From Bacillota bacterium (GTDB lineage Bacteria; Bacillota; Proteinivoracia; UBA4975): 64,000 nucleotides of DNA. Location of the stretch: assembly GCA_012523545.1 (NCBI GenBank), contig JAAYIH010000049.1, forward strand, positions 43,841 to 107,840, read 5' to 3'. Position 1 is the first letter of the stretch. The number at the start of each line of letters is the position of its first letter. A model generated the notes under the pieces. That model was given only the letters and a program-made list of their open reading frames with translations. It searched no databases and was not told the DNA's origin. The translations under genes and the position numbers were made by a program. Shown here piece by piece: positions 5,897 through 21,524 of the stretch.

Positions 5897-6817
5897 ATGC
5901 CTGAGACAACTGCCGCACAGCTGGTTGCGGCGCTAAAGCTTAATGTTTTGGTGGGCGAAGAGTGGCTGGACCGCAAAGTGGTTACCGCCGACATCCACCG
6001 GCCCGCTTTGGAAATGGCCGGCTTCTTTGCCCATTTTCCCGCCGAACGCGTTCAGGTAATGGGGATGACGGAGACGCACTTTTTTAACGAACTGGATCCT
6101 TCCACCCAGCTGGAGAGGGCCAAAAAGCTGTTGTCGCCCCAGACGCCCTGTCTGATTATCACCCGCAATTTGCAGCCTGCTGCGGCGCTGGTCAGGGCGG
6201 CCAGGGCCGCCCGGGTGCCAATCTTCGGCACCGCCCTGCCCACCACCCGCCTCATCAGCCGCATGGGCCATTGGCTGGACAATGCCCTGGCTCCCCGCAA
6301 AACGCTGCACGGTGTATTGGTCGACCTCTTCGGTACCGGCGTTCTCATTACCGGACCCAGCGGCATCGGCAAGAGCGAAACGGCGCTGGAACTCATCCAA
6401 AAAGGGCATCGCCTCATTGCCGACGATGCCGTGGAAATCCGCCGGCCTTCCGAAGATATCCTGGTGGGAACCTGTCCGCCGGTACTGGCCAATCTCCTGG
6501 AACTGCGCGGCGTCGGCATCATCGATGTGACCAAACTGTTTGGCGCCGGCGCGGTACGGCCCGACAAACGGGTGGAACTGATTATTCGCCTGCAGCCCTG
6601 GCAAGAGGGCGAGCCTTACGATCGCCTGGGCTTTGACAGCGAGTACCAGGAGGTTTTGGGCGTCAAGGTGCCGATGCTTACCGTCCCTGTGGCGCCGGGA
6701 CGCAACCTGGCCATGCTGGTGGAAACTGCCGCCGCCAATTTCCGGGCCCGGACCATGGGCATGGCGGTTGACCAGGAACTGCTGCGAAGAATCGACGAAG
6801 CCATGTCCGGAAAATAA
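5897..6817 (+). CDS. hprK: HPr kinase/phosphorylase
   Basis: P-loop GPSGIGKSETALEL and the HprK C-terminal domain. ATG at 5897 is preceded by a GGTGGAG RBS. The longer track ORF from 5828 has no RBS. Confidence 0.88.
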   Translation: MPETTAAQLVAALKLNVLVGEEWLDRKVVTADIHRPALEMAGFFAHFPAERVQVMGMTETHFFNELDPSTQLERAKKLLSPQTPCLIITRNLQPAAALVRAARAARVPIFGTALPTTRLISRMGHWLDNALAPRKTLHGVLVDLFGTGVLITGPSGIGKSETALELIQKGHRLIADDAVEIRRPSEDILVGTCPPVLANLLELRGVGIIDVTKLFGAGAVRPDKRVELIIRLQPWQEGEPYDRLGFDSEYQEVLGVKVPMLTVPVAPGRNLAMLVETAAANFRARTMGMAVDQELLRRIDEAMSGK

Positions 6818-6820
6818 CAG

Positions 6821-6845
6821 GCCGCTGCCGGCGGCTTTTTTTTGC
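6821..6845 (+). terminator. intrinsic terminator after hprK
   Basis: GCCGCTGCCGGCGGC hairpin followed by TTTTTTTTT. Confidence 0.75.
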
Positions 6846-6912: not shown

Positions 6913-8292
6913 ATGGATTTTTCTGCATCTAATCAAGCCTTGTGGAACCTGATGCTTCAGTTTGGAATCATGGCCGGACTGATGCTCTTTGCCAATGTCC
7001 TGCGCCGCAAGATTCCGCTTTTCCGCAAGAGCTTGCTGCCAACAGCTGTGTTGGCCGGTTTTATCGCCCTTTTTGTGAGAATGAGCGGGGCATTGCCCAT
7101 CGACGCCGGGCTGATGGAGATGGTCACTTATCATTCCATCGCCATTGGCTTCATTGCCCTCTCGTTGCAGATCCCGGACAAGAAGAAAAAAGCTGAAAGC
7201 GCCGGGCTCATTGCCGCCCGCAGCGGCGCCCTCATCGTCAGCACCTATTTGCTTCAGGGCTTGTTGGGGCTGGCTGTTTCCGTCGGGATGGCATATACCA
7301 TTATGCCGAACTTGTTTAAGGCCGCGGGCATCCTGTTGCCCATGGGTTACGGGCAGGGTCCGGGGCAGGCCAATAATGTGGGCTCGACATACGAAGCCCT
7401 GGGGTTTGCCGGCGGCCAGTCCTTTGGTCTCTCCCTGGCGGCTGCAGGCTTTCTCTGCGCTTGCACAGTGGGGGTTATTTACATCAATATCATGAAAAGG
7501 CAGGGCAAAATCGACCCGTCTGTTCTGGAACCTGCGGCCAGGCCGGTGACCGTCGCCGATTTTCAAAGTCACAATGAGATCCCCATTTCCGAATCGGTGG
7601 ACAGGCTGTCGGTGCAGTTTTCCCTGGTCATCATCGTTTATCTTGGCACCTACCTTGTTTCCCGGGGGATTACCGCTTTACTGGCGGCATACTTGCCCGG
7701 CCTGAGCGCGACACTGTCATCTTTGGTGTGGGGCTTTAACTTCATTATCGGCGCCCTGCTGGCCATTATCTGCCGCAATCTTTTTGCCTTTTTAACCCGG
7801 ACCGGGCTAATGACCCGGCAGTACCCCAACAATTACCTGCTGAGCCGGATTGCCGGGGTGGCCTTTGATTTCATGGTGCTGGCCGGAATAGCCGCCATCG
7901 ACATGAGAGACCTGGCAGGATTGTGGCTGCCCTTTGCGCTCATGGCCGTATTGGGCGGCGCCGTTACCCTGTGGTACTTGGCCTGGATTTGCAAGAAATT
8001 ATATCCGGGGTACTACTACGAGGGTATGCTGTCCATGTTCGGCATGCTGACCGGCACCATCAGCTCCGGGGTCCTTTTGTTGCGGGAAATTGACCCTTCT
8101 TTCCGGACACCTGCCGCTGTCAACCTGCTGACGGGCAGCAGCTTTGCCATCCTCTTTGGGTTGCCCATGCTGGTTTTGATTGGACTGGCGCCGCAATCCG
8201 TCGCCATGCTGTTTACGGCGATAGCCATCATGGTCGTTTATTTTGCCTTGTTGCTTTACTTCATGCTGGCGCCAAAATTGCGCAAATCGTGA
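6913..8292 (+). CDS. polytopic membrane transporter, sodium/glutamate symporter (GltS/ESS)-like
   Basis: About 12 predicted TM helices. A GYGQGPGQA segment resembles the GltS SGGHGTGAA region. ATG at 6913 is 7 nt after GGAGG. The family assignment is tentative. Confidence 0.55.
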   Translation: MDFSASNQALWNLMLQFGIMAGLMLFANVLRRKIPLFRKSLLPTAVLAGFIALFVRMSGALPIDAGLMEMVTYHSIAIGFIALSLQIPDKKKKAESAGLIAARSGALIVSTYLLQGLLGLAVSVGMAYTIMPNLFKAAGILLPMGYGQGPGQANNVGSTYEALGFAGGQSFGLSLAAAGFLCACTVGVIYINIMKRQGKIDPSVLEPAARPVTVADFQSHNEIPISESVDRLSVQFSLVIIVYLGTYLVSRGITALLAAYLPGLSATLSSLVWGFNFIIGALLAIICRNLFAFLTRTGLMTRQYPNNYLLSRIAGVAFDFMVLAGIAAIDMRDLAGLWLPFALMAVLGGAVTLWYLAWICKKLYPGYYYEGMLSMFGMLTGTISSGVLLLREIDPSFRTPAAVNLLTGSSFAILFGLPMLVLIGLAPQSVAMLFTAIAIMVVYFALLLYFMLAPKLRKS

Positions 8293-8294
8293 AG

Positions 8295-8325
8295 CAGGCA
8301 AATTGTGCCTGCTTCTTTATTTAGT
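8295..8325 (+). terminator. intrinsic terminator
   Basis: AGCAGGCA-aatt-TGCCTGCT hairpin followed by TCTTTATTT. Confidence 0.7.
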
Positions 8326-8384
8326 ATAAGAGCCGGGACTTGGGGGGGAAATTATATTTAGCAACGCCGACAGGAGATGGAAAT

Positions 8385-9938
8385 ATGCAGAAATTACCGG
8401 AATTGACTCCGGAACCCCAATCCTACTGGCTCGAGTCCAGCCCCGAGCCTGAATTCCCGCAACTGGACAAGGAAATCAGCGTCGACGTGGCCATCGTCGG
8501 CGGCGGGCTGACGGGCATTTCCACCGCCTGGCATTTGCAACGAGAGGGGCTGCGGGTGGCGGTCCTGGAAGCCGACAAGGTCGGGTATGGCACTACCGGA
8601 CATTCCACCGCCAAGATTACCGCCCAGCATGACCTGATTTACTGGCAGCTCAAAAGCCAATGGGGCGCGGAACTGGCCCAACAATATGCCCAGGCCAACG
8701 CGGCTGCTATAGCCGCCATGGCCGATTTAGTAAATCAGTTGAGCATTGATTGCGATTTTCAGTGGCAGCCGGCCTATGTCTACACCCTTGAGGACAAGTA
8801 CGTCACCAAGATAGAGCAGGAGGCCGAGGCGGCAGCCAGCCTGGGCATCGAAGCCGAATACCTGGATAACCTGGAATTGCCCTTTGCCGTCAAGGCGGCG
8901 GTGCGCTTTAACGGCCAGGCGCAATTCCATCCCGGCAAGTATACGGCCGCCCTGGCCGCACACTTTGTCCGGGAAGGCGGCGCCATTTACCAGGGGACGA
9001 CGGCGGTGGGGCTTGAAGAAGGAGAGACGGTTGTCACTGTATTTACCCAAACCAGCCACAAAGTTCGGGCCGACAAGGTGGTTATAGCCAGCCATTTTCC
9101 CTTTTATGACGGTCTCGGCCTGTATTTTGCCCGCATGTACCCCGAGCGCTCCTATATCCTGGCCGTCAAGGGCGCAGACCGCCTGCCGCCGGGGATGTAT
9201 GTGACAGCTGAGTCACCGGGGCGTTCGCTGCGCACCCACAAGGCCGGCGATGAGGAATTGCTGCTGGTGGCTGGTGAGCACCACAAAACAGCCCACGGCG
9301 AAGAAGAAACCGTCCATTACGAACGGTTGCGCGATTTTGCCGGCAAGTACTTCGGGGCCCAAGCCATTCCCTGGCGCTGGTCGGCCCAGGATTATACCAC
9401 GGCGGACAACATCCCGTATATCGGGCATATCAGGCCGGGCTGCGGCAATATCTTTGTAGCCACGGGATTTCGCAAGTGGGGAATATCCACCGCCACCGTG
9501 GCGGCCATGTTAATCCGGGACTTGATTGTATGGGGGCACAGTCTCTGGCAGGATGTTTACAACCCGCAGCGGAGCCTTAAATTAAACGCGGTGGGCAAGC
9601 TGATCAGCCTCAACGCCGATGTGGCCAAAGAACTGGTTTGGGGCAAACTCAGTGCCGCCGAGTCCGGGGAGATCGGCAGGCAGGAGGCCAAAGTGGTGGA
9701 AGTCCACGGCCGCAAAGCGGGCGCCTACCGCGACGAAGAGGGCAGGCTGCATGTGGTGGACAACACCTGTACCCATCTCGGGTGTGAACTGAAGTGGAAC
9801 CCTGCCGAAAAGACCTGGGACTGCCCCTGCCACGGTTCCCGTTTCTCCTATACAGGAGATATTGTGGAGGGGCCGGCGGTAAAACCCCTGCGCCGGCTGG
9901 GAGAAGGAGCCAGCGATATCGATCCGGATATCATATAG
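8385..9938 (+). CDS. FAD-dependent oxidoreductase (DAO family) fused to a C-terminal Rieske [2Fe-2S] domain
   Basis: N-terminal dinucleotide fold VAIVGGGLTGISTAW...EADKVGYGTTG and a C-terminal Rieske CTHLGCELKW...CPCHGSRF. ATG at 8385 is 8 nt after AGGAG. Confidence 0.85.
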   Translation: MQKLPELTPEPQSYWLESSPEPEFPQLDKEISVDVAIVGGGLTGISTAWHLQREGLRVAVLEADKVGYGTTGHSTAKITAQHDLIYWQLKSQWGAELAQQYAQANAAAIAAMADLVNQLSIDCDFQWQPAYVYTLEDKYVTKIEQEAEAAASLGIEAEYLDNLELPFAVKAAVRFNGQAQFHPGKYTAALAAHFVREGGAIYQGTTAVGLEEGETVVTVFTQTSHKVRADKVVIASHFPFYDGLGLYFARMYPERSYILAVKGADRLPPGMYVTAESPGRSLRTHKAGDEELLLVAGEHHKTAHGEEETVHYERLRDFAGKYFGAQAIPWRWSAQDYTTADNIPYIGHIRPGCGNIFVATGFRKWGISTATVAAMLIRDLIVWGHSLWQDVYNPQRSLKLNAVGKLISLNADVAKELVWGKLSAAESGEIGRQEAKVVEVHGRKAGAYRDEEGRLHVVDNTCTHLGCELKWNPAEKTWDCPCHGSRFSYTGDIVEGPAVKPLRRLGEGASDIDPDII

Positions 9939-9946
9939 TTTTGCCA

Positions 9947-9985
9947 GGAGCCTACAGCGGCTCCTGGATTATTTTGGCAGAGATT
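9947..9985 (+). terminator. intrinsic terminator
   Basis: CCAGGAGC-ctacagcg-GCTCCTGG hairpin followed by ATTATTTT. Confidence 0.7.
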
Positions 9986-10069
9986 GTGAAATAAATAACC
10001 TGTCGACGGCAGGAAAAGAGGGCTTCGAAATAGAATCTACTACAATGTGGTGTAAATCACAGTACTCGT

Positions 10070-10402
10070 ATGTGGGAGGAGAATGGCTTGAGGAGAATCA
10101 CAAAACACCCGATTTTGCAGTTTGAAGAAAAGCCGGTGATCACCTTTACCTTTGAAGGCCGAAAGCTGCAGGGGAGAGAAGGAGATACCATTGCTTCCGC
10201 CCTGCATGCCAACGGCATCAAAGTTCTCAGTCACAGCCGTCGTTACCATCGCCCCCGGGGATTTTTTTGCGCCATTGGCAAGTGCTCGGCCTGTCTCATG
10301 ACTGTCAACGGCACGCCCAATGTGCGGGCCTGTGTGGAACCTTTGGTGGAAGGTATGGACGTCAGGCGTCAACCTGCCACAGGAGGTGAACTGAAGTGGT
10401 AA
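10070..10402 (+). CDS. small (2Fe-2S)-binding subunit, HcnA / sarcosine-oxidase-alpha-N-terminal-like
   Basis: Cysteine pattern C...CAIGKCSACLMTVNG...C. It opens an operon of translationally overlapping oxidoreductase genes. An alternative TTG start at 10088 lies 6 nt after GGGAGGAG. Confidence 0.75.
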   Translation: MWEENGLRRITKHPILQFEEKPVITFTFEGRKLQGREGDTIASALHANGIKVLSHSRRYHRPRGFFCAIGKCSACLMTVNGTPNVRACVEPLVEGMDVRRQPATGGELKW

Positions 10403-11484
10403 AAACTCAATTGCTGGTGGTGGGGGGAGGGCCGGCCGGCCTGGCTGCAGCGGATACAGCCGCATCCCTGGGCATTCAGGTATTGCTGGTGGATGAAGGA
10501 CGCAGCCTGGGCGGTCAGCTGGTCAAGCAAACCCACAAATTTTTTGGTTCCGGCGAACATCATGCCGGCGTCCGCGGCATCGACATCCCCCAGCTCCTGC
10601 TCAAAGAAGGTCAGGACAAAATTACATTCAAACTGAACACCACTGTCATCGGTTGTTACCAAGACAGGGTGCTGACTGCCCTTACCGGCGAGGATGAATA
10701 TTTTAAGATCAGTCCGCAGGCTGCAATCTTTGCCACCGGGGCCTCGGAAAAATTCCTGGCGTTTCCCGGCAATGACCTGCCCGGAGTGTACGGGGCGGGG
10801 GCAGTGCAAACCTTGATGAACCAGTACGGGGTTTTGCCCGGAAACAGAGTGCTCATGGTGGGCGCTGGAAATATCGGCATCATTGTCAGTTATCAGCTCC
10901 TGCAAGCCGGCGTCCAGGTGGCGGCAGTTGTTGAGGCTGCCCCCCAAATCGGCGGTTATCTCGTTCATGCTTCCAAACTGGCCAGGGCCGGCGTGCCAAT
11001 CTTGACCAGGCACACCATCCTGGCGGCCCGGGGCAAGGAAGCGGTGGAATCTGCCGTCATCGCCCGCCTGGATGACAACTGGCAGGTCGTGCCCGGTTCC
11101 CAGCAGGAACTGGAAGTGGATGTAGTATGCCTGGCCGTCGGGCTGTCGCCGGTGGTGGACCTGTTGCGGCAGGCAGGTTGCCGGACCCGGTATGTGCCTG
11201 AACTGGGCGGAGATGTTCCCGTCCGCGATTCTCTGCTCAGGACCAGCCAGGAATGGATTTACGTGGCCGGCGACGTGGCTGGGGTAGAAGAGGCCAGCGC
11301 CGCCATGGTGGAAGGCCGCCTGGCCGGTGCTGCCGCCGCCAAGCAGCTGGGCGCCGATGTCGCTGCTGCTGATGAAATCATTGCCCGCAGCCAGGCCAGC
11401 CTCAAAGCGCTGCGCGGCGGGCCGGTGGGAGAAAAGATCCGTTCCGGCATTGCCAAACTGGAGGGAGGGATAGCCAATGCTTAA
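10396..11484 (+). CDS. NAD(P)/FAD-dependent pyridine-nucleotide-disulfide-type oxidoreductase subunit (HcnB/opine-oxidase-A-like)
   Basis: Two Rossmann motifs, VVGGGPAGLAAA and MVGAGNIGIIVS. The GTG start is 8 nt after AGGAGGTGA and overlaps the upstream stop codon. Confidence 0.8.
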   Translation: MVKTQLLVVGGGPAGLAAADTAASLGIQVLLVDEGRSLGGQLVKQTHKFFGSGEHHAGVRGIDIPQLLLKEGQDKITFKLNTTVIGCYQDRVLTALTGEDEYFKISPQAAIFATGASEKFLAFPGNDLPGVYGAGAVQTLMNQYGVLPGNRVLMVGAGNIGIIVSYQLLQAGVQVAAVVEAAPQIGGYLVHASKLARAGVPILTRHTILAARGKEAVESAVIARLDDNWQVVPGSQQELEVDVVCLAVGLSPVVDLLRQAGCRTRYVPELGGDVPVRDSLLRTSQEWIYVAGDVAGVEEASAAMVEGRLAGAAAAKQLGADVAAADEIIARSQASLKALRGGPVGEKIRSGIAKLEGGIANA

Positions 11485-11980
11485 GACAACAGGTGTTGCG
11501 CAAAAAGAGGACTGGCAAGCCAAATTGCCTCCCGAGGAAAGGCGCAAGGCCGGTCCCTATGTGGTATACGAATGTTACCAGAAAATTCCCTGCAATCCCT
11601 GCGAGAAATCCTGTCCCTTTAAGGCCGTAACCATCGGCGAAGACATCAACAACATTCCCCGGGTGGATTACGACCTGTGCAACGGGTGCGGGGTCTGTAT
11701 TGCCCGTTGTCCCGGCCTGGCAATTTTCGTGGTGGATGAAACGTACGCCCCCGGTTACGGCAAGGTCCTCATTCCCTGGGAATACTTGCCGGTGCCGGAA
11801 AAGGGCAGTGAAGTGACGGCAGTGGGCAGGGACGGCAAAGATGTGTGCCGGGCCGAGGTGGTGGAGGTGCGCACCGCCAGGAATCAGGACCGCACCGTCG
11901 TCATTGGCCTTAAAGTGCCCGTGGACCTGGTCAACGAGGTCAGGGGCATCAAGCTCGGGGGTGAAGATAATGGAAGATAG
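11477..11980 (+). CDS. 4Fe-4S ferredoxin-domain subunit
   Basis: CNPCEKSCP and CNGCGVCIARCP cysteine motifs. The ATG overlaps the upstream stop, and there is a GGAGGG RBS. Confidence 0.7.
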   Translation: MLKTTGVAQKEDWQAKLPPEERRKAGPYVVYECYQKIPCNPCEKSCPFKAVTIGEDINNIPRVDYDLCNGCGVCIARCPGLAIFVVDETYAPGYGKVLIPWEYLPVPEKGSEVTAVGRDGKDVCRAEVVEVRTARNQDRTVVIGLKVPVDLVNEVRGIKLGGEDNGR

Positions 11981-12251
11981 AGACACCATCATCTGCCGCT
12001 GTGAGGATTTGACCCGGGAAGACGTGCGCAAGCTCATTGAGGCGGGTTATACTACGGTGGAAGAAATCAAACGCATCAGCCGTTGCGGTATGGGCCCGTG
12101 TCAGGGCAGAACCTGTCACCAGTTGTTGGTCAGGGAAATTGCCTTGCTTACGGGGAAGGATCCCGCTGAAATCCCCCCGCACAAGGCGCGCCCGCCCATC
12201 AAGGGAATAAAACTGGGTACTCTGCTTGCGGGAGGGGAGAAACATGACTAA
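11970..12251 (+). CDS. BFD-like (2Fe-2S)-binding domain protein
   Basis: CRCEDLTREDV...CGMGPCQGRTC is a BFD-like [2Fe-2S] motif. The gene overlaps the preceding one by 11 nt in a different frame, so a frameshift of an originally single gene is possible. Confidence 0.6.
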   Translation: MEDRDTIICRCEDLTREDVRKLIEAGYTTVEEIKRISRCGMGPCQGRTCHQLLVREIALLTGKDPAEIPPHKARPPIKGIKLGTLLAGGEKHD

Positions 12252-13395
12252 GATGAGTGCAGATGTGGTCATAGTCGGCGGCGGCATCATCGGCTGTGCC
12301 ACCGCCTACTACCTGGCCAAACAGGGCGTCACCGACGTAGTGGTGGTGGAGCGCGACTTTTTGGCCAGCGGTTCCACCGGCCGTTGCGGCGCCGGCGTGC
12401 GTCAGCAGTGGGGCCTCAAAATGAATATCCTCCTGGCCAAGGAAAGCATCAAGGCCTTTGAAACCCTTAATGAAGAGCTGGATACCGGCCTCGACATCGA
12501 GTTCAAGCAACAGGGTTATCTCATGCTGGCCTACACCGAAAAAATGGTGGAACAGTACAAAAAGAACGTCGCCCTGCAGCAGTCGCTGGATGTGCCTGCC
12601 CGGCTGATTTCTCCTGCTGAAGCCCGGGAGATTGTGCCCTACCTCAATACCGACGGGCTGCTGGCGGCCACTTTCTGTCCCACCGACGGCCACATCAACC
12701 CCTTTACCACTACCAACTCCTATGCCATCGCCGCCCGCCGCCTCGGGGTCAGAATCATGACCGGCACCGAAGTAACTGGCATCGAGGTCAAGGACGGCCG
12801 CGTGGTGGCGGTGGAGACCAGCGCCGGCAAAATTCATACCAATGCAGTGCTCAATGCCAGCGGCGGATATTCCCGGGAGGTGGCGGCCATGGCGGGCGTT
12901 GACCTGCCCACCTACCCCGAACGCCATCAAATTCTCGTCACAGAGCCGGTGGCGCCCATTCAGGGTCCCATGGTCATCTCACTGCATCACGGGTTCTATT
13001 GCCAGCAGACGCCCCACGGCAGTTTTATCATGGGTTTTGGCGACCCCAATGAGCTCAAGGAACACGTGGTTTCGTCCACCTGGCATTTTATGGAGGAGAT
13101 GGCGGCCAAAGTCCTGCCCGTGCTTCCCCCGCTGGCCCAACTCCGGGTGGTGCGGCAATGGGCGGGGTTGTACAACATGTCTCCCGATGCTCAGCCCATT
13201 TTGGGCGAAGCGCCTGCGTGCCGGGGATTCTACAATGCCGTCGGCTTCAGCGGCCACGGCTTCATGTTGGGTCCCGTCACAGGCATGCTGATGGCGGAAT
13301 TGATTTCCGGCAAGGAGCCGCATATCGACATTTCGCCCCTCAGCCTGGAGCGCTTTGAAAAAGGCGAATTGCTGCGGGAACCTTCGGTGGTGTAG
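12244..13395 (+). CDS. FAD-dependent oxidoreductase subunit (sarcosine-oxidase-beta / HcnC / proline-dehydrogenase-beta-like)
   Basis: VVIVGGGIIGCATAYYLAKQG...ERDFLASGSTGRCGAG DAO fold. ATG at 12244 follows GGGAGGGGAG. Confidence 0.85.
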   Translation: MTKMSADVVIVGGGIIGCATAYYLAKQGVTDVVVVERDFLASGSTGRCGAGVRQQWGLKMNILLAKESIKAFETLNEELDTGLDIEFKQQGYLMLAYTEKMVEQYKKNVALQQSLDVPARLISPAEAREIVPYLNTDGLLAATFCPTDGHINPFTTTNSYAIAARRLGVRIMTGTEVTGIEVKDGRVVAVETSAGKIHTNAVLNASGGYSREVAAMAGVDLPTYPERHQILVTEPVAPIQGPMVISLHHGFYCQQTPHGSFIMGFGDPNELKEHVVSSTWHFMEEMAAKVLPVLPPLAQLRVVRQWAGLYNMSPDAQPILGEAPACRGFYNAVGFSGHGFMLGPVTGMLMAELISGKEPHIDISPLSLERFEKGELLREPSVV

Positions 13396-13421
13396 TATAC
13401 CAAGTACCAATGGGCTGCATG

Positions 13422-13460
13422 TCCCGGCCGGGAAATGCAGCCCTTTCTTTGCCCAAATTG
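13422..13460 (+). terminator. intrinsic terminator ending the oxidoreductase operon
   Basis: GGGCTGCAT...ATGCAGCCC stem with an internally paired loop, followed by TTTCTTT. Confidence 0.7.
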
Positions 13461-13511: not shown

Positions 13512-13519
13512 CAAATTGC

Positions 13520-13735
13520 AAAGGCTGTGAAGGGGAGGAGTAGGGTGCCCGCGTCCGTTGCAGAGAGGAGAACCACAGGCTGCAAGTTCTCCCGGCCGCT
13601 CACCTGAAGGTCGCCCTGGAGCCAGCGCCTCTGTGCGCCGGGTCATTCCCGTTATCCGTTGAGCCGGCTGTGGCCGGGAAGTAAGGTGGTACCGCGAGCG
13701 CTTCGCCCTTATGGGCAAGCGCTTTTTTAGTTTTA
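13520..13735 (+). promoter_or_regulatory. T-box riboswitch leader of valS with terminator hairpin (13699-13733)
   Basis: Conserved T-box sequence AGGTGGTACCGCG at 13685-13697 is followed at once by the terminator AGCGCTTCGCCC...GGGCAAGCGCT plus TTTTTT. It lies directly upstream of valS, a classic T-box gene. Confidence 0.8.
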
Positions 13736-20900: not shown

Positions 20901-21524
20901 TTGACGGAAAAAAAGCATCGCATCCCTGATGTCGTTATTCGCAGGCTTCCGGTATATCTCCGGTATTTGCAACAACTGATGAGCTATGATGTGGACACAG
21001 TATCTTCCCAGCAGATGGGCCATGATTTAAATCTTAACCCGGCTCAAATACGCAAGGACTTGTCCATTTTTGGTGATTTTGGCGTTAAGGGAATGGGTTA
21101 CCGGGTTTCCGAGCTGGCCGACAAACTTTCCAAAATCCTCGGGTTGGACAAGGAGATACCCATAGTTCTCGTGGGAGTAGGCAACCTGGGCGCCGCCCTG
21201 TGCAGGTACAACCGATATCAAAAATCTGCCACCAAAATCGTCGGCCTGTTTGACGGACATCCTGCCAAGATTGGTCAGGTGCACGGTTCCCTGGAAGTGC
21301 GGCCCATGGAAGAGTTGGTGGATTTCGTGCGCCAAAACAACATCAAGATGGCAATTATTACAGTTCCTGCCGCTGCCGCTCAATCGGTTTGCGATGCCCT
21401 GGTGGCTGCCGGCGTAAAAGCCATTTTAAATTTTGCCCCGGTACTGCTCAATGTTCCTGAGGGCGTGCGGGTTCAAAATTCAGATGTCACTGTAGAATTA
21501 CAGGCGTTGGCATACTATTTATGA
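20901..21524 (+). CDS. rex: redox-sensing transcriptional repressor Rex
   Basis: Winged-helix N-terminus PDVVIRRLPVYLRYL and an NADH-binding Rossmann fold VLVGVGNLGAAL. TTG start is 6 nt after GGAGGGA. Confidence 0.9.
   Translation: MTEKKHRIPDVVIRRLPVYLRYLQQLMSYDVDTVSSQQMGHDLNLNPAQIRKDLSIFGDFGVKGMGYRVSELADKLSKILGLDKEIPIVLVGVGNLGAALCRYNRYQKSATKIVGLFDGHPAKIGQVHGSLEVRPMEELVDFVRQNNIKMAIITVPAAAAQSVCDALVAAGVKAILNFAPVLLNVPEGVRVQNSDVTVELQALAYYL

Follow-up and report, generated by a model that had tools for sequence, protein, structure and literature searches.

Relationship to described heteromeric flavoenzymes

The archaeal αβγδ L-proline dehydrogenase/NADH (reduced nicotinamide adenine dinucleotide) dehydrogenases, represented by PdhA/PdhB/PdhF/PdhX of T. 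profundus, the PDH2 type of P. horikoshii and OCC_00347–00332 of T. litoralis, combine a flavin adenine dinucleotide (FAD)/NADH α subunit with a DAO-type β, a ferredoxin-like γ and a small δ subunit. Their genes are ordered α, γ, δ, β in T. litoralis (Watanabe et al., PMC4364671), which corresponds to pdhA–pdhF–pdhX–pdhB in both T. profundus and T. litoralis (PMC4364671). We compared these complexes with a five-gene operon at positions 10088–13395 of a 64,000-nucleotide (nt) stretch of DNA from a Bacillota bacterium (Proteinivoracia, UBA4975; assembly GCA_012523545.1, contig JAAYIH010000049.1, positions 43,841 to 107,840 of the forward strand), referred to as a whole as the window. The operon carries a like set of parts in the same α–γ–δ–β order, and differs from the archaeal type in its bacterial host and in an α subunit that is cut into two genes.

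Other described complexes share parts of this architecture. P. horikoshii PDH1 (PH1363/PH1364, 1Y56) is an α4β4 enzyme whose α subunit is a single chain and which has no γ ferredoxin; it binds ATP and is not known to act as an NADH dehydrogenase. The sarcosine-demethylating heterotetramer SoxABDG (2GAG, 1VRQ) contains an α subunit, SoxA, with a folate-binding C-terminal half. HcnABC, flavin opine dehydrogenase and D-hydroxyproline dehydrogenase (α4β4γ4 type; PMC4575208) follow a similar logic, built from Fer2_4, Pyr_redox_2/BFD and DAO subunits.

The five subunits encoded in the window are as follows.

10088..10402, plus strand: α-N, small [2Fe-2S] subunit (Pfam Fer2_4, 5e-33), equivalent to the N-terminus of SoxA and PH1363
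10396..11484, plus strand: α-C, two-Rossmann FAD/NAD(H) subunit (Pfam Pyr_redox_2, 7.7e-35), equivalent to SoxA residues ~127–447
11477..11980, plus strand: γ, 2x[4Fe-4S] ferredoxin domain with a C-terminal small β-barrel, 167 amino acids (aa)
11970..12251, plus strand: δ, BFD-like [2Fe-2S]/SoxA-A3 domain subunit, 93 aa (Pfam SO_alpha_A3 1.2e-14, Fer2_BFD 7e-11)
12244..13395, plus strand: β, catalytic DAO-family FAD subunit of the SoxB/L-proline dehydrogenase-β class, 383 aa (Pfam DAO 4.9e-85)

Pfam, and also NCBIfam, agreed with every flavoprotein and Fe–S domain that the initial annotation had assigned from the DNA alone. Domain content, gene order, synteny, collinearity with SoxA and PH1363, and the conservation of both metal ligands and gene junctions were all read directly from the alignments and contigs. 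α-N and α-C together comprise 466 aa, and the subunit sizes are close to those of the archaeal αβγδ enzyme.

The catalytic subunit is closest to proline dehydrogenase. Its best match in the PDB was 1Y56_B, the β subunit of P. horikoshii L-proline dehydrogenase (1.5e-82, 281 bits, ~45% identical, residues 5–377 against 5–375), with SoxB (1.4e-53, 186 bits), dimethylglycine dehydrogenase and glycine oxidase well behind it. The remaining subunits, apart from γ, follow the α chain of the same enzymes. α-N aligned with residues 14–88 of PH1363 (1Y56_A) and 20–79 of SoxA (2GAG_A), α-C with residues 110–260 and 127–447 of these chains, respectively, and δ with residues 411–490 of 1Y56_A; for δ, SoxA was unmatched in the PDB search, and the corresponding region was positions 522–597 of the NCBIfam soxA model. 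The three pieces thus follow one another along PH1363, and likewise along the N-terminal half of SoxA, such that Fer2_4, Pyr_redox_2 and δ together correspond to one α chain, with the γ ferredoxin gene inserted between its second and third pieces. The operon shares with PDH1 a collinear α and a β that is similar over its full length, and differs from it in having a γ ferredoxin and a divided α.

Conservation of the cofactor ligands was assessed over 47–90 related loci. In α-N, C61, C66, C69 and C82 were conserved in 57 loci, and δ retained C9, C11, C44 and C49. The eight conserved cysteines of γ are arranged as C-x5-C-x2-C-x3-C and C-x2-C-x2-C-x3-C-P, and α-C retained its second GxGNxG Rossmann motif together with a GD motif.

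Comparison with the other complexes narrowed the kinship. With SoxABDG the operon shares a β homologous to SoxB, while its α-N, α-C and δ are related to the first ~600 residues of SoxA, in which the A3 domain is included. It has neither the folate-binding C-terminal half of SoxA nor SoxD or SoxG, and it adds a 2x[4Fe-4S] subunit and real Fe–S ligands. A SoxA of ~965–1000 aa scoring above the TIGR01372 cut-off of 1164 bits was not present: the matched model positions (15–98, 168–490 and 522–597) were spread over three genes, the best of which, α-C over positions 168–490, reached 169 bits. β scored 235 bits against the TIGR01373 (SoxB) cut-off of 529, and the operon had no further small-subunit genes. 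From the three-subunit Hcn/opine type the operon differs in having a γ ferredoxin, a δ encoded by its own gene, and a β of the SoxB/proline dehydrogenase class rather than ThiO; β scored best on soxB and proline dehydrogenase β. By domain and profile matches, the operon belongs to the SoxAB/HcnABC/ProDH superfamily of heteromeric flavoenzymes. The broad kinship proposed initially, with sarcosine oxidase, HcnABC, opine oxidase and archaeal proline dehydrogenase, therefore held, and gene order and the ~45% identity of β to 1Y56_B narrow it to the archaeal αβγδ L-proline dehydrogenase.

We accordingly favor, with a probability of roughly 0.6, a reading in which genes 10088–13395 encode a soluble multi-cofactor amino-acid dehydrogenase that would be the bacterial counterpart of archaeal PdhA-F-X-B, with L-proline, or a cyclic or secondary amino acid close to it, as the likely substrate.

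Substrate and genomic context

We infer the substrate, electron path and acceptor from context and homology. The cassette order was retained in essentially all of 80 distant metagenome loci with enough flanking sequence, in which γ was 42–57% identical to that of the window. The DAO subunits at distant loci fell into two classes, one 47–63% identical to the window β and the other 25–40% identical and ThiO/DadA-like. The second class accompanied the same Fer2_4–Pyr_redox_2–γ–δ module at L103, L117, L122, L123, L142, L143, L151, L156, L160, L170, L174 and L176. Two DAO classes on one module suggest that the Fe–S/flavin scaffold serves at least two catalytic subunits, implying a second substrate.

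At 35 loci with an orthologous-type β (47–63%), 133 neighboring open reading frames (ORFs) were searched against Pfam. Liv-type ABC amino-acid uptake was recurrent (BPD_transp_2 permeases in seven ORFs, Peripla_BP_6 binding proteins in four), as were aldehyde:ferredoxin oxidoreductase (AFOR; five loci), SNF amino-acid symporters (n = 3) and aldehyde dehydrogenases (n = 2). Both aldehyde dehydrogenases (L104, L146) lie directly downstream of β and are L-glutamate γ-semialdehyde (Δ1-pyrroline-5-carboxylate, P5C) dehydrogenases of two different subfamilies, with scores of 828 and 786 above the respective NCBIfam curated cut-offs of 648 and 614. A PrdR-like sigma-54 regulator lies upstream at one further locus of this class. 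In Desulfoscipio, GntR and an SNF transporter precede it, and glutamate dehydrogenase, a 2-oxoacid:ferredoxin oxidoreductase and an aminotransferase follow. These neighbors fit a route from proline through P5C and glutamate to 2-oxoglutarate, which together with the likeness of β to a crystallized proline dehydrogenase makes L-proline the most likely substrate, as judged from homology and gene context.

A polyferredoxin gene and AFOR directly follow the cassette at L090/L091 (9971–12785), L161 (12403–14253) and L163 (3076–4926), with an additional ThiS/MoaD-like gene at L090; it is possible that such ferredoxin-linked neighbors stand in for P5C dehydrogenase. A Cu-oxidase_4 (YfiH/PgeF-type) gene of ~275 aa directly upstream of the cassette at L107, L115, L121, L152, L166 and L175 probably reflects lineage synteny.

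Several points weigh against assigning the window operon to proline oxidation. The substrate context comes from distant orthologs; homologs of P5C dehydrogenase, AFOR, glutamate dehydrogenase and SNF transporters were not found in the window, and its own neighbors, a GltS-like transporter and an FAD–Rieske enzyme, are not proline-specific. The likeness of the window γ and δ to PdhF and PdhX is one of part type and gene order, and the enzyme with which β was compared, 1Y56, is of the α4β4 and not the αβγδ type. Archaeal enzymes of the group also take pipecolate and hydroxyproline (PMC4141209), and our literature search found neither biochemical data on a bacterial member nor a characterized bacterial representative of the four-subunit type. 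A further difficulty, the reduction potential of proline, is taken up with the mechanism below.

A different cyclic or secondary substrate, such as L-pipecolate, hydroxyproline, D-proline or an opine, with the DAO–Rieske enzyme and the transporter acting in the same pathway in this clade, is the alternative that survives best, although we consider it a clear second choice. The archaeal enzymes have the breadth noted above, the pairing of the electron-transfer module with ThiO/DadA-like subunits elsewhere indicates that substrates diversify, and the top NCBIfam match of the DAO–Rieske protein is L-pipecolate oxidase, though its 84 bits fall far short of the cut-off (600). On the other hand, the context of cassettes with orthologous-type β points to P5C and glutamate, and none of the genes next to the operon, here or in the related lineages, was recognized as a racemase, an epimerase or a member of a pipecolate pathway. 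Less probable still is a demethylating sarcosine or N-methyl-amino-acid oxidase or dehydrogenase resembling SoxABDG, the formaldehyde from which would be cleared by neighboring aldehyde oxidoreductases. It draws on the matches of β to the soxB subfamily model and of α-C and δ to the soxA model, and AFOR-family neighbors could in principle oxidize formaldehyde. Those scores are nevertheless far under the curated cut-offs, the folate-binding half of SoxA, SoxD and SoxG are all missing from the operon, β is nearer to proline dehydrogenase β than to SoxB, and P5C dehydrogenase adjoins the cassette in two loci.

Proposed electron path

Under the proline dehydrogenase reading, the DAO-type FAD of β would oxidize the C–N bond of L-proline, or of a closely related cyclic or secondary amino acid, yielding P5C in the case of proline. 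Electrons would leave by way of the δ BFD-type [2Fe-2S] cluster, both [4Fe-4S] clusters in γ and the α-N [2Fe-2S] cluster, with δ, the A3 domain of SoxA and PH1363, forming an interface region on this path. They would arrive at the FAD of α-C, which would exchange them with NAD(H), perhaps also with ferredoxin. The four overlapping gene junctions (7, 8, 11 and 8 nt, in operon order) couple translation, such that the subunits are made together.

The proline/P5C couple has an E0′ of approximately −0.12 V, far above that of NAD+/NADH (−0.32 V). Proline alone therefore cannot drive NAD+ reduction, and a simple path from proline to NAD+ is thermodynamically incomplete, which counts against the reading in its plainest form. 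The unfavorable potential, together with the lack of a membrane subunit, calls either for another acceptor or for coupling to the oxidation of reduced ferredoxin (confurcation). A proline dehydrogenase of anaerobic bacteria that works by flavin-based electron confurcation (or bifurcation), in which electrons from proline and reduced ferredoxin yield 2 NADH by analogy with the lactate dehydrogenase/Etf system, strikes us as an attractive but rather unlikely form of the enzyme. In such a complex, with three flavins and four clusters, γ would be the entry wire for ferredoxin, and AFOR would oxidize glutamate semialdehyde and so supply reduced ferredoxin. The cofactor inventory fits, no membrane or quinone subunit is encoded, and a ferredoxin gene and AFOR lie beside the L090 cassette; our literature search found no bifurcating proline dehydrogenase. 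Were confurcation to operate, proline could be converted to glutamate by a route that needs neither PutA nor oxygen or quinone.

Conservation of the operon at the hprK–valS locus

We assessed whether the operon is accessory, as the initial annotation suggested for the whole block between hprK and valS, by comparison with six related lineages (L087, L088, L089, L094, L095 and L096) retrieved through γ homologs, with distances estimated by tblastn. The operon was found at the same locus in all six, between engB/hprK and valS, or, in the truncated contig L096, directly after engB. The shared order was lon, engB, (hprK), variable genes, the operon, further variable genes, valS, folC and a gene for a TPR protein. 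The five subunits were 72–86% identical to those of the window, and were thus as conserved as Lon (74–86%) and ValS (76–78%); HprK was 63–69% and FolC 44–56% identical. Guanine-plus-cytosine (GC) content across the block was 0.55–0.61 without a compositional break, save for a small dip over the transporter, a membrane protein. Given such identities at the same locus in relatives whose ValS is 76–78% identical, the operon is a conserved, vertically inherited and ordinary metabolic locus under purifying selection, and not an island or pseudogene. A scan with HprK returned, among the matches listed, distant Paenibacillus and Oscillospiraceae (≤49% identity) and no close relatives.

Within the block, only the two genes upstream of the operon vary by lineage. 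The transporter was present in three of the six relatives (L094, L095, L096) and missing from L087, L088 and L089, while the DAO–Rieske gene lay directly upstream of the operon in L087, L094 and L095 and was missing from L088, L089 and L096; L095 has exactly the order of the window. Near the cassette in the 80 distant metagenome loci we found no homologs of either gene, and their distant homologs lie in unrelated contexts that give no functional clue, which together indicate that the link of these genes to the operon is specific to the clade.

The hprK–valS interval is otherwise a hotspot of gene turnover, where the relatives carry PadR–FtsW–VanZ genes, flavodoxin, purE–purK, a methyltransferase, Opp permeases, a D-Ala-D-Ala carboxypeptidase (penicillin-binding peptidase) and EamA, as well as an IS66 transposase in L087. 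hprK itself is missing in L096. The five-gene operon was constant across all lineages despite this turnover.

The γ–δ junction

The end of γ and the start of δ overlap by 11 nt in different frames at 11970–11980, exactly as initially reported. The same 11-nt overlap occurs in L088, L094, L095 and L096, with 8 nt in L089, 1 nt in L087, 4 nt in Thermosediminibacter (L093) and a 4-nt gap in Desulfoscipio (L092). In all close relatives the codons for the C-terminal 'LGGE' of γ spell GGGGGTGA, located 5–7 nt 5′ of the δ ATG, and the junction GGGGGTGA-N-ATG is conserved; this element within the γ codons is the predicted ribosome-binding site of δ.

Among 71 metagenome loci, γ and δ were split in 55, fused in frame in 14 (~254 aa) and separated in 2, in which δ was located elsewhere; an in-frame fusion is also present in L090. 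Overlaps of 8 or 11 nt accounted for 25 of the 55 split loci and were the commonest junction family-wide. The identical γ protein was recovered in 110 independent assembly blocks, such that the window junction is not a sequencing error. The initial annotation had left open whether the overlap was a frameshift in an ancestral single gene or programmed coupling. The conserved split with an embedded Shine–Dalgarno (SD) sequence, as the commonest state, speaks for coupling and against a recent frameshift, while in-frame fusions do exist elsewhere. On this comparative evidence, the window junction is the family's normal, selected translational-coupling state, and fusion or fission of the two genes is real but old.

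An exhaustive profile search also returned proteins of ~500–710 aa with the γ domain near the C-terminus or internal (P0369, P0370, P0373, P0382, P0394, P0400 and others), which appear to be larger fusions of γ with the Pyr_redox_2 part, δ or both. Repeated fusion and splitting of the α parts over evolution supports the view that they work as one unit.

An accessory island gained by horizontal transfer, with a single gene broken by a γ–δ frameshift, a history that the plastic, lineage-specific filling of the interval with its IS66 transposase and the existence of fused γ–δ genes might have favored, is already contradicted for the operon by its presence in all six lineages at 72–86% identity without a GC break, by the conservation of the split with its embedded GGGGGTGA, where the genes of relatives overlap by 11, 8 or 1 nt, and by the 110 assembly blocks and the family-wide prevalence of 8- and 11-nt overlaps.

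Upstream control region

One conserved feature precedes the operon.

9984..10036, plus strand: conserved upstream control region, comprising TTGTGAAATAAATAACC at 9984–10000 and a promoter-like pair, GGCAGGAAAA at 10008–10017 and, after a 12-nt spacer, ATAGAAT at 10030–10036

This region aligned across seven lineages (the window, L087, L088, L089, L094, L095 and L096), with the columns G-AGGAA and A..GAA invariant. The promoter-like pair had the consensus GCAGGAAww-N12-AATAGAAT in all seven and appears to resemble the sigma-H type consensus (RnAGGAwww / RnnGAATww). A strict sigma-H pattern (GAATW) missed the site, and the case is made by the alignment. If the sigma-H-like promoter functions as such, expression of the operon would begin at stationary-phase entry or in early sporulation. 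Downstream, α-N begins at a TTG codon preceded by the SD sequence GGGAGG (10074–10080), both of which are conserved in relatives.

Directly 5′ of the promoter-like pair, TTGTGAAATAAATAACC (consensus GTGAAAwAwTTAACC) was conserved in most relatives. One half of it resembles a half-site for Rex, and the window carries a rex-like gene at ~20901–21524. As a canonical Rex operator the element was rejected: it gave no match within three mismatches, and the search performed no better than chance and did not hit the operon promoter. A TGTG-N8-CACA palindrome at 10046–10061, considered as a Rex/CRP-type operator, was likewise discarded, being missing in relatives.

Neighboring genes and transcription units

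Seven genes, all on the plus strand, lie between hprK (5897–6817) and the valS T-box leader (13518–13713), and their start sites were identical in gene calls on public contigs that carry identical proteins. The features outside the operon are as follows.

6819..6837, plus strand: terminator-like hairpin followed by T8, 3′ of hprK (−11.5 kcal/mol, z −1.2, weak); upstream boundary of the block
6913..8292, plus strand: secondary transporter, 459 aa, a divergent GltS/ESS-family relative; variable neighbor of the operon
8291..8315, plus strand: intrinsic terminator-like hairpin, then a T-run, 3′ of the transporter (−17.6 kcal/mol, z −5.0)
8385..9938, plus strand: DAO-family FAD oxidoreductase with a C-terminal Rieske [2Fe-2S] domain, 517 aa, YhfW-like architecture; variable neighbor of the operon
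9944..9967, plus strand: intrinsic terminator-like hairpin, then a T-run, 3′ of the DAO–Rieske gene (−19.3 kcal/mol, z −3.9)
13412..13443, plus strand: hairpin terminator 3′ of the last DAO gene of the operon, then UUUCUUUG (−25 kcal/mol, z −3.4)

Hairpins with T-runs were thus found 3′ of hprK, the transporter, the DAO–Rieske gene and the last DAO gene, in agreement with the three terminator-delimited units first proposed between hprK and valS. The transporter and the FAD–Rieske enzyme would be transcribed separately from the operon and would not be parts of the complex, and they plausibly belong to the same amino-acid catabolic theme. The T-box leader 5′ of valS scored 82 bits against an Rfam gathering score of 93, at E 6e-17 and with full model coverage. 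A 36-aa ORF called within the T-box region on one public contig is probably spurious.

The transporter had no Pfam or NCBIfam match, even at E ≤ 10, and its hhalign comparison with E. coli GltS was insignificant (E 0.07). Its family is very large and carries the NCBI and JGI labels ESS or sodium:glutamate symporter, and homologs 65% identical to it barely pass Pfam Glt_symporter (PF03616; 26–31 bits against a gathering score of 26), a model on which E. coli GltS scores 548 bits against ~30 for this subfamily, with the window protein itself unmatched. Its predicted structure, of low confidence (pLDDT 60), best matched AspT, an aspartate:alanine antiporter, and CitS, a citrate symporter, related transporters whose fold class it would share. 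The description of the protein as GltS-like is acceptable for a remote, transitive relationship through the 65%-identical homologs; the substrate is not transferable on such homology.

The DAO–Rieske gene, for which the longest ORF begins at 8340 (532 aa), matched Pfam DAO (1.2e-52, residues 49–395) and Rieske (8.2e-16, residues 439–518) on that ORF, and its translation contains the Rieske motifs CTHLGC and CPCHGS (CxH...CxxH ligands). These matches bear out its initial description as a DAO-family FAD oxidase with a C-terminal Rieske domain. The same architecture occurs in >7664 homologs, all generically named, and the homolog in C. aceticum stands alone. B. subtilis YhfW is likewise an FAD oxidoreductase with a C-terminal Rieske domain (PMC7317962); the gene at 8385–9938 is likened to it by this two-domain architecture.

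Possible implications for anaerobic proline catabolism

The cassette is widespread and misannotated, forming 196 clusters at 50% identity (E ≤ 1e-30) in anaerobic Bacillota, Synergistota, spirochaetes and others, in which database labels for its genes read only '4Fe-4S binding protein', '(2Fe-2S)-binding protein' or 'FAD-dependent oxidoreductase'. For the window itself the result is mostly corrective, in that an apparent frameshift in an accessory block is normal translational coupling in a conserved metabolic operon. For the family, recognizing the cassette as the probable bacterial version of the four-subunit proline dehydrogenase of archaea would give these generically labeled genes a testable function. 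It would also make the cassette a candidate start of oxidative proline catabolism in strict anaerobes, and raises the bioenergetic question of whether its acceptor may be NAD+, ferredoxin or both.

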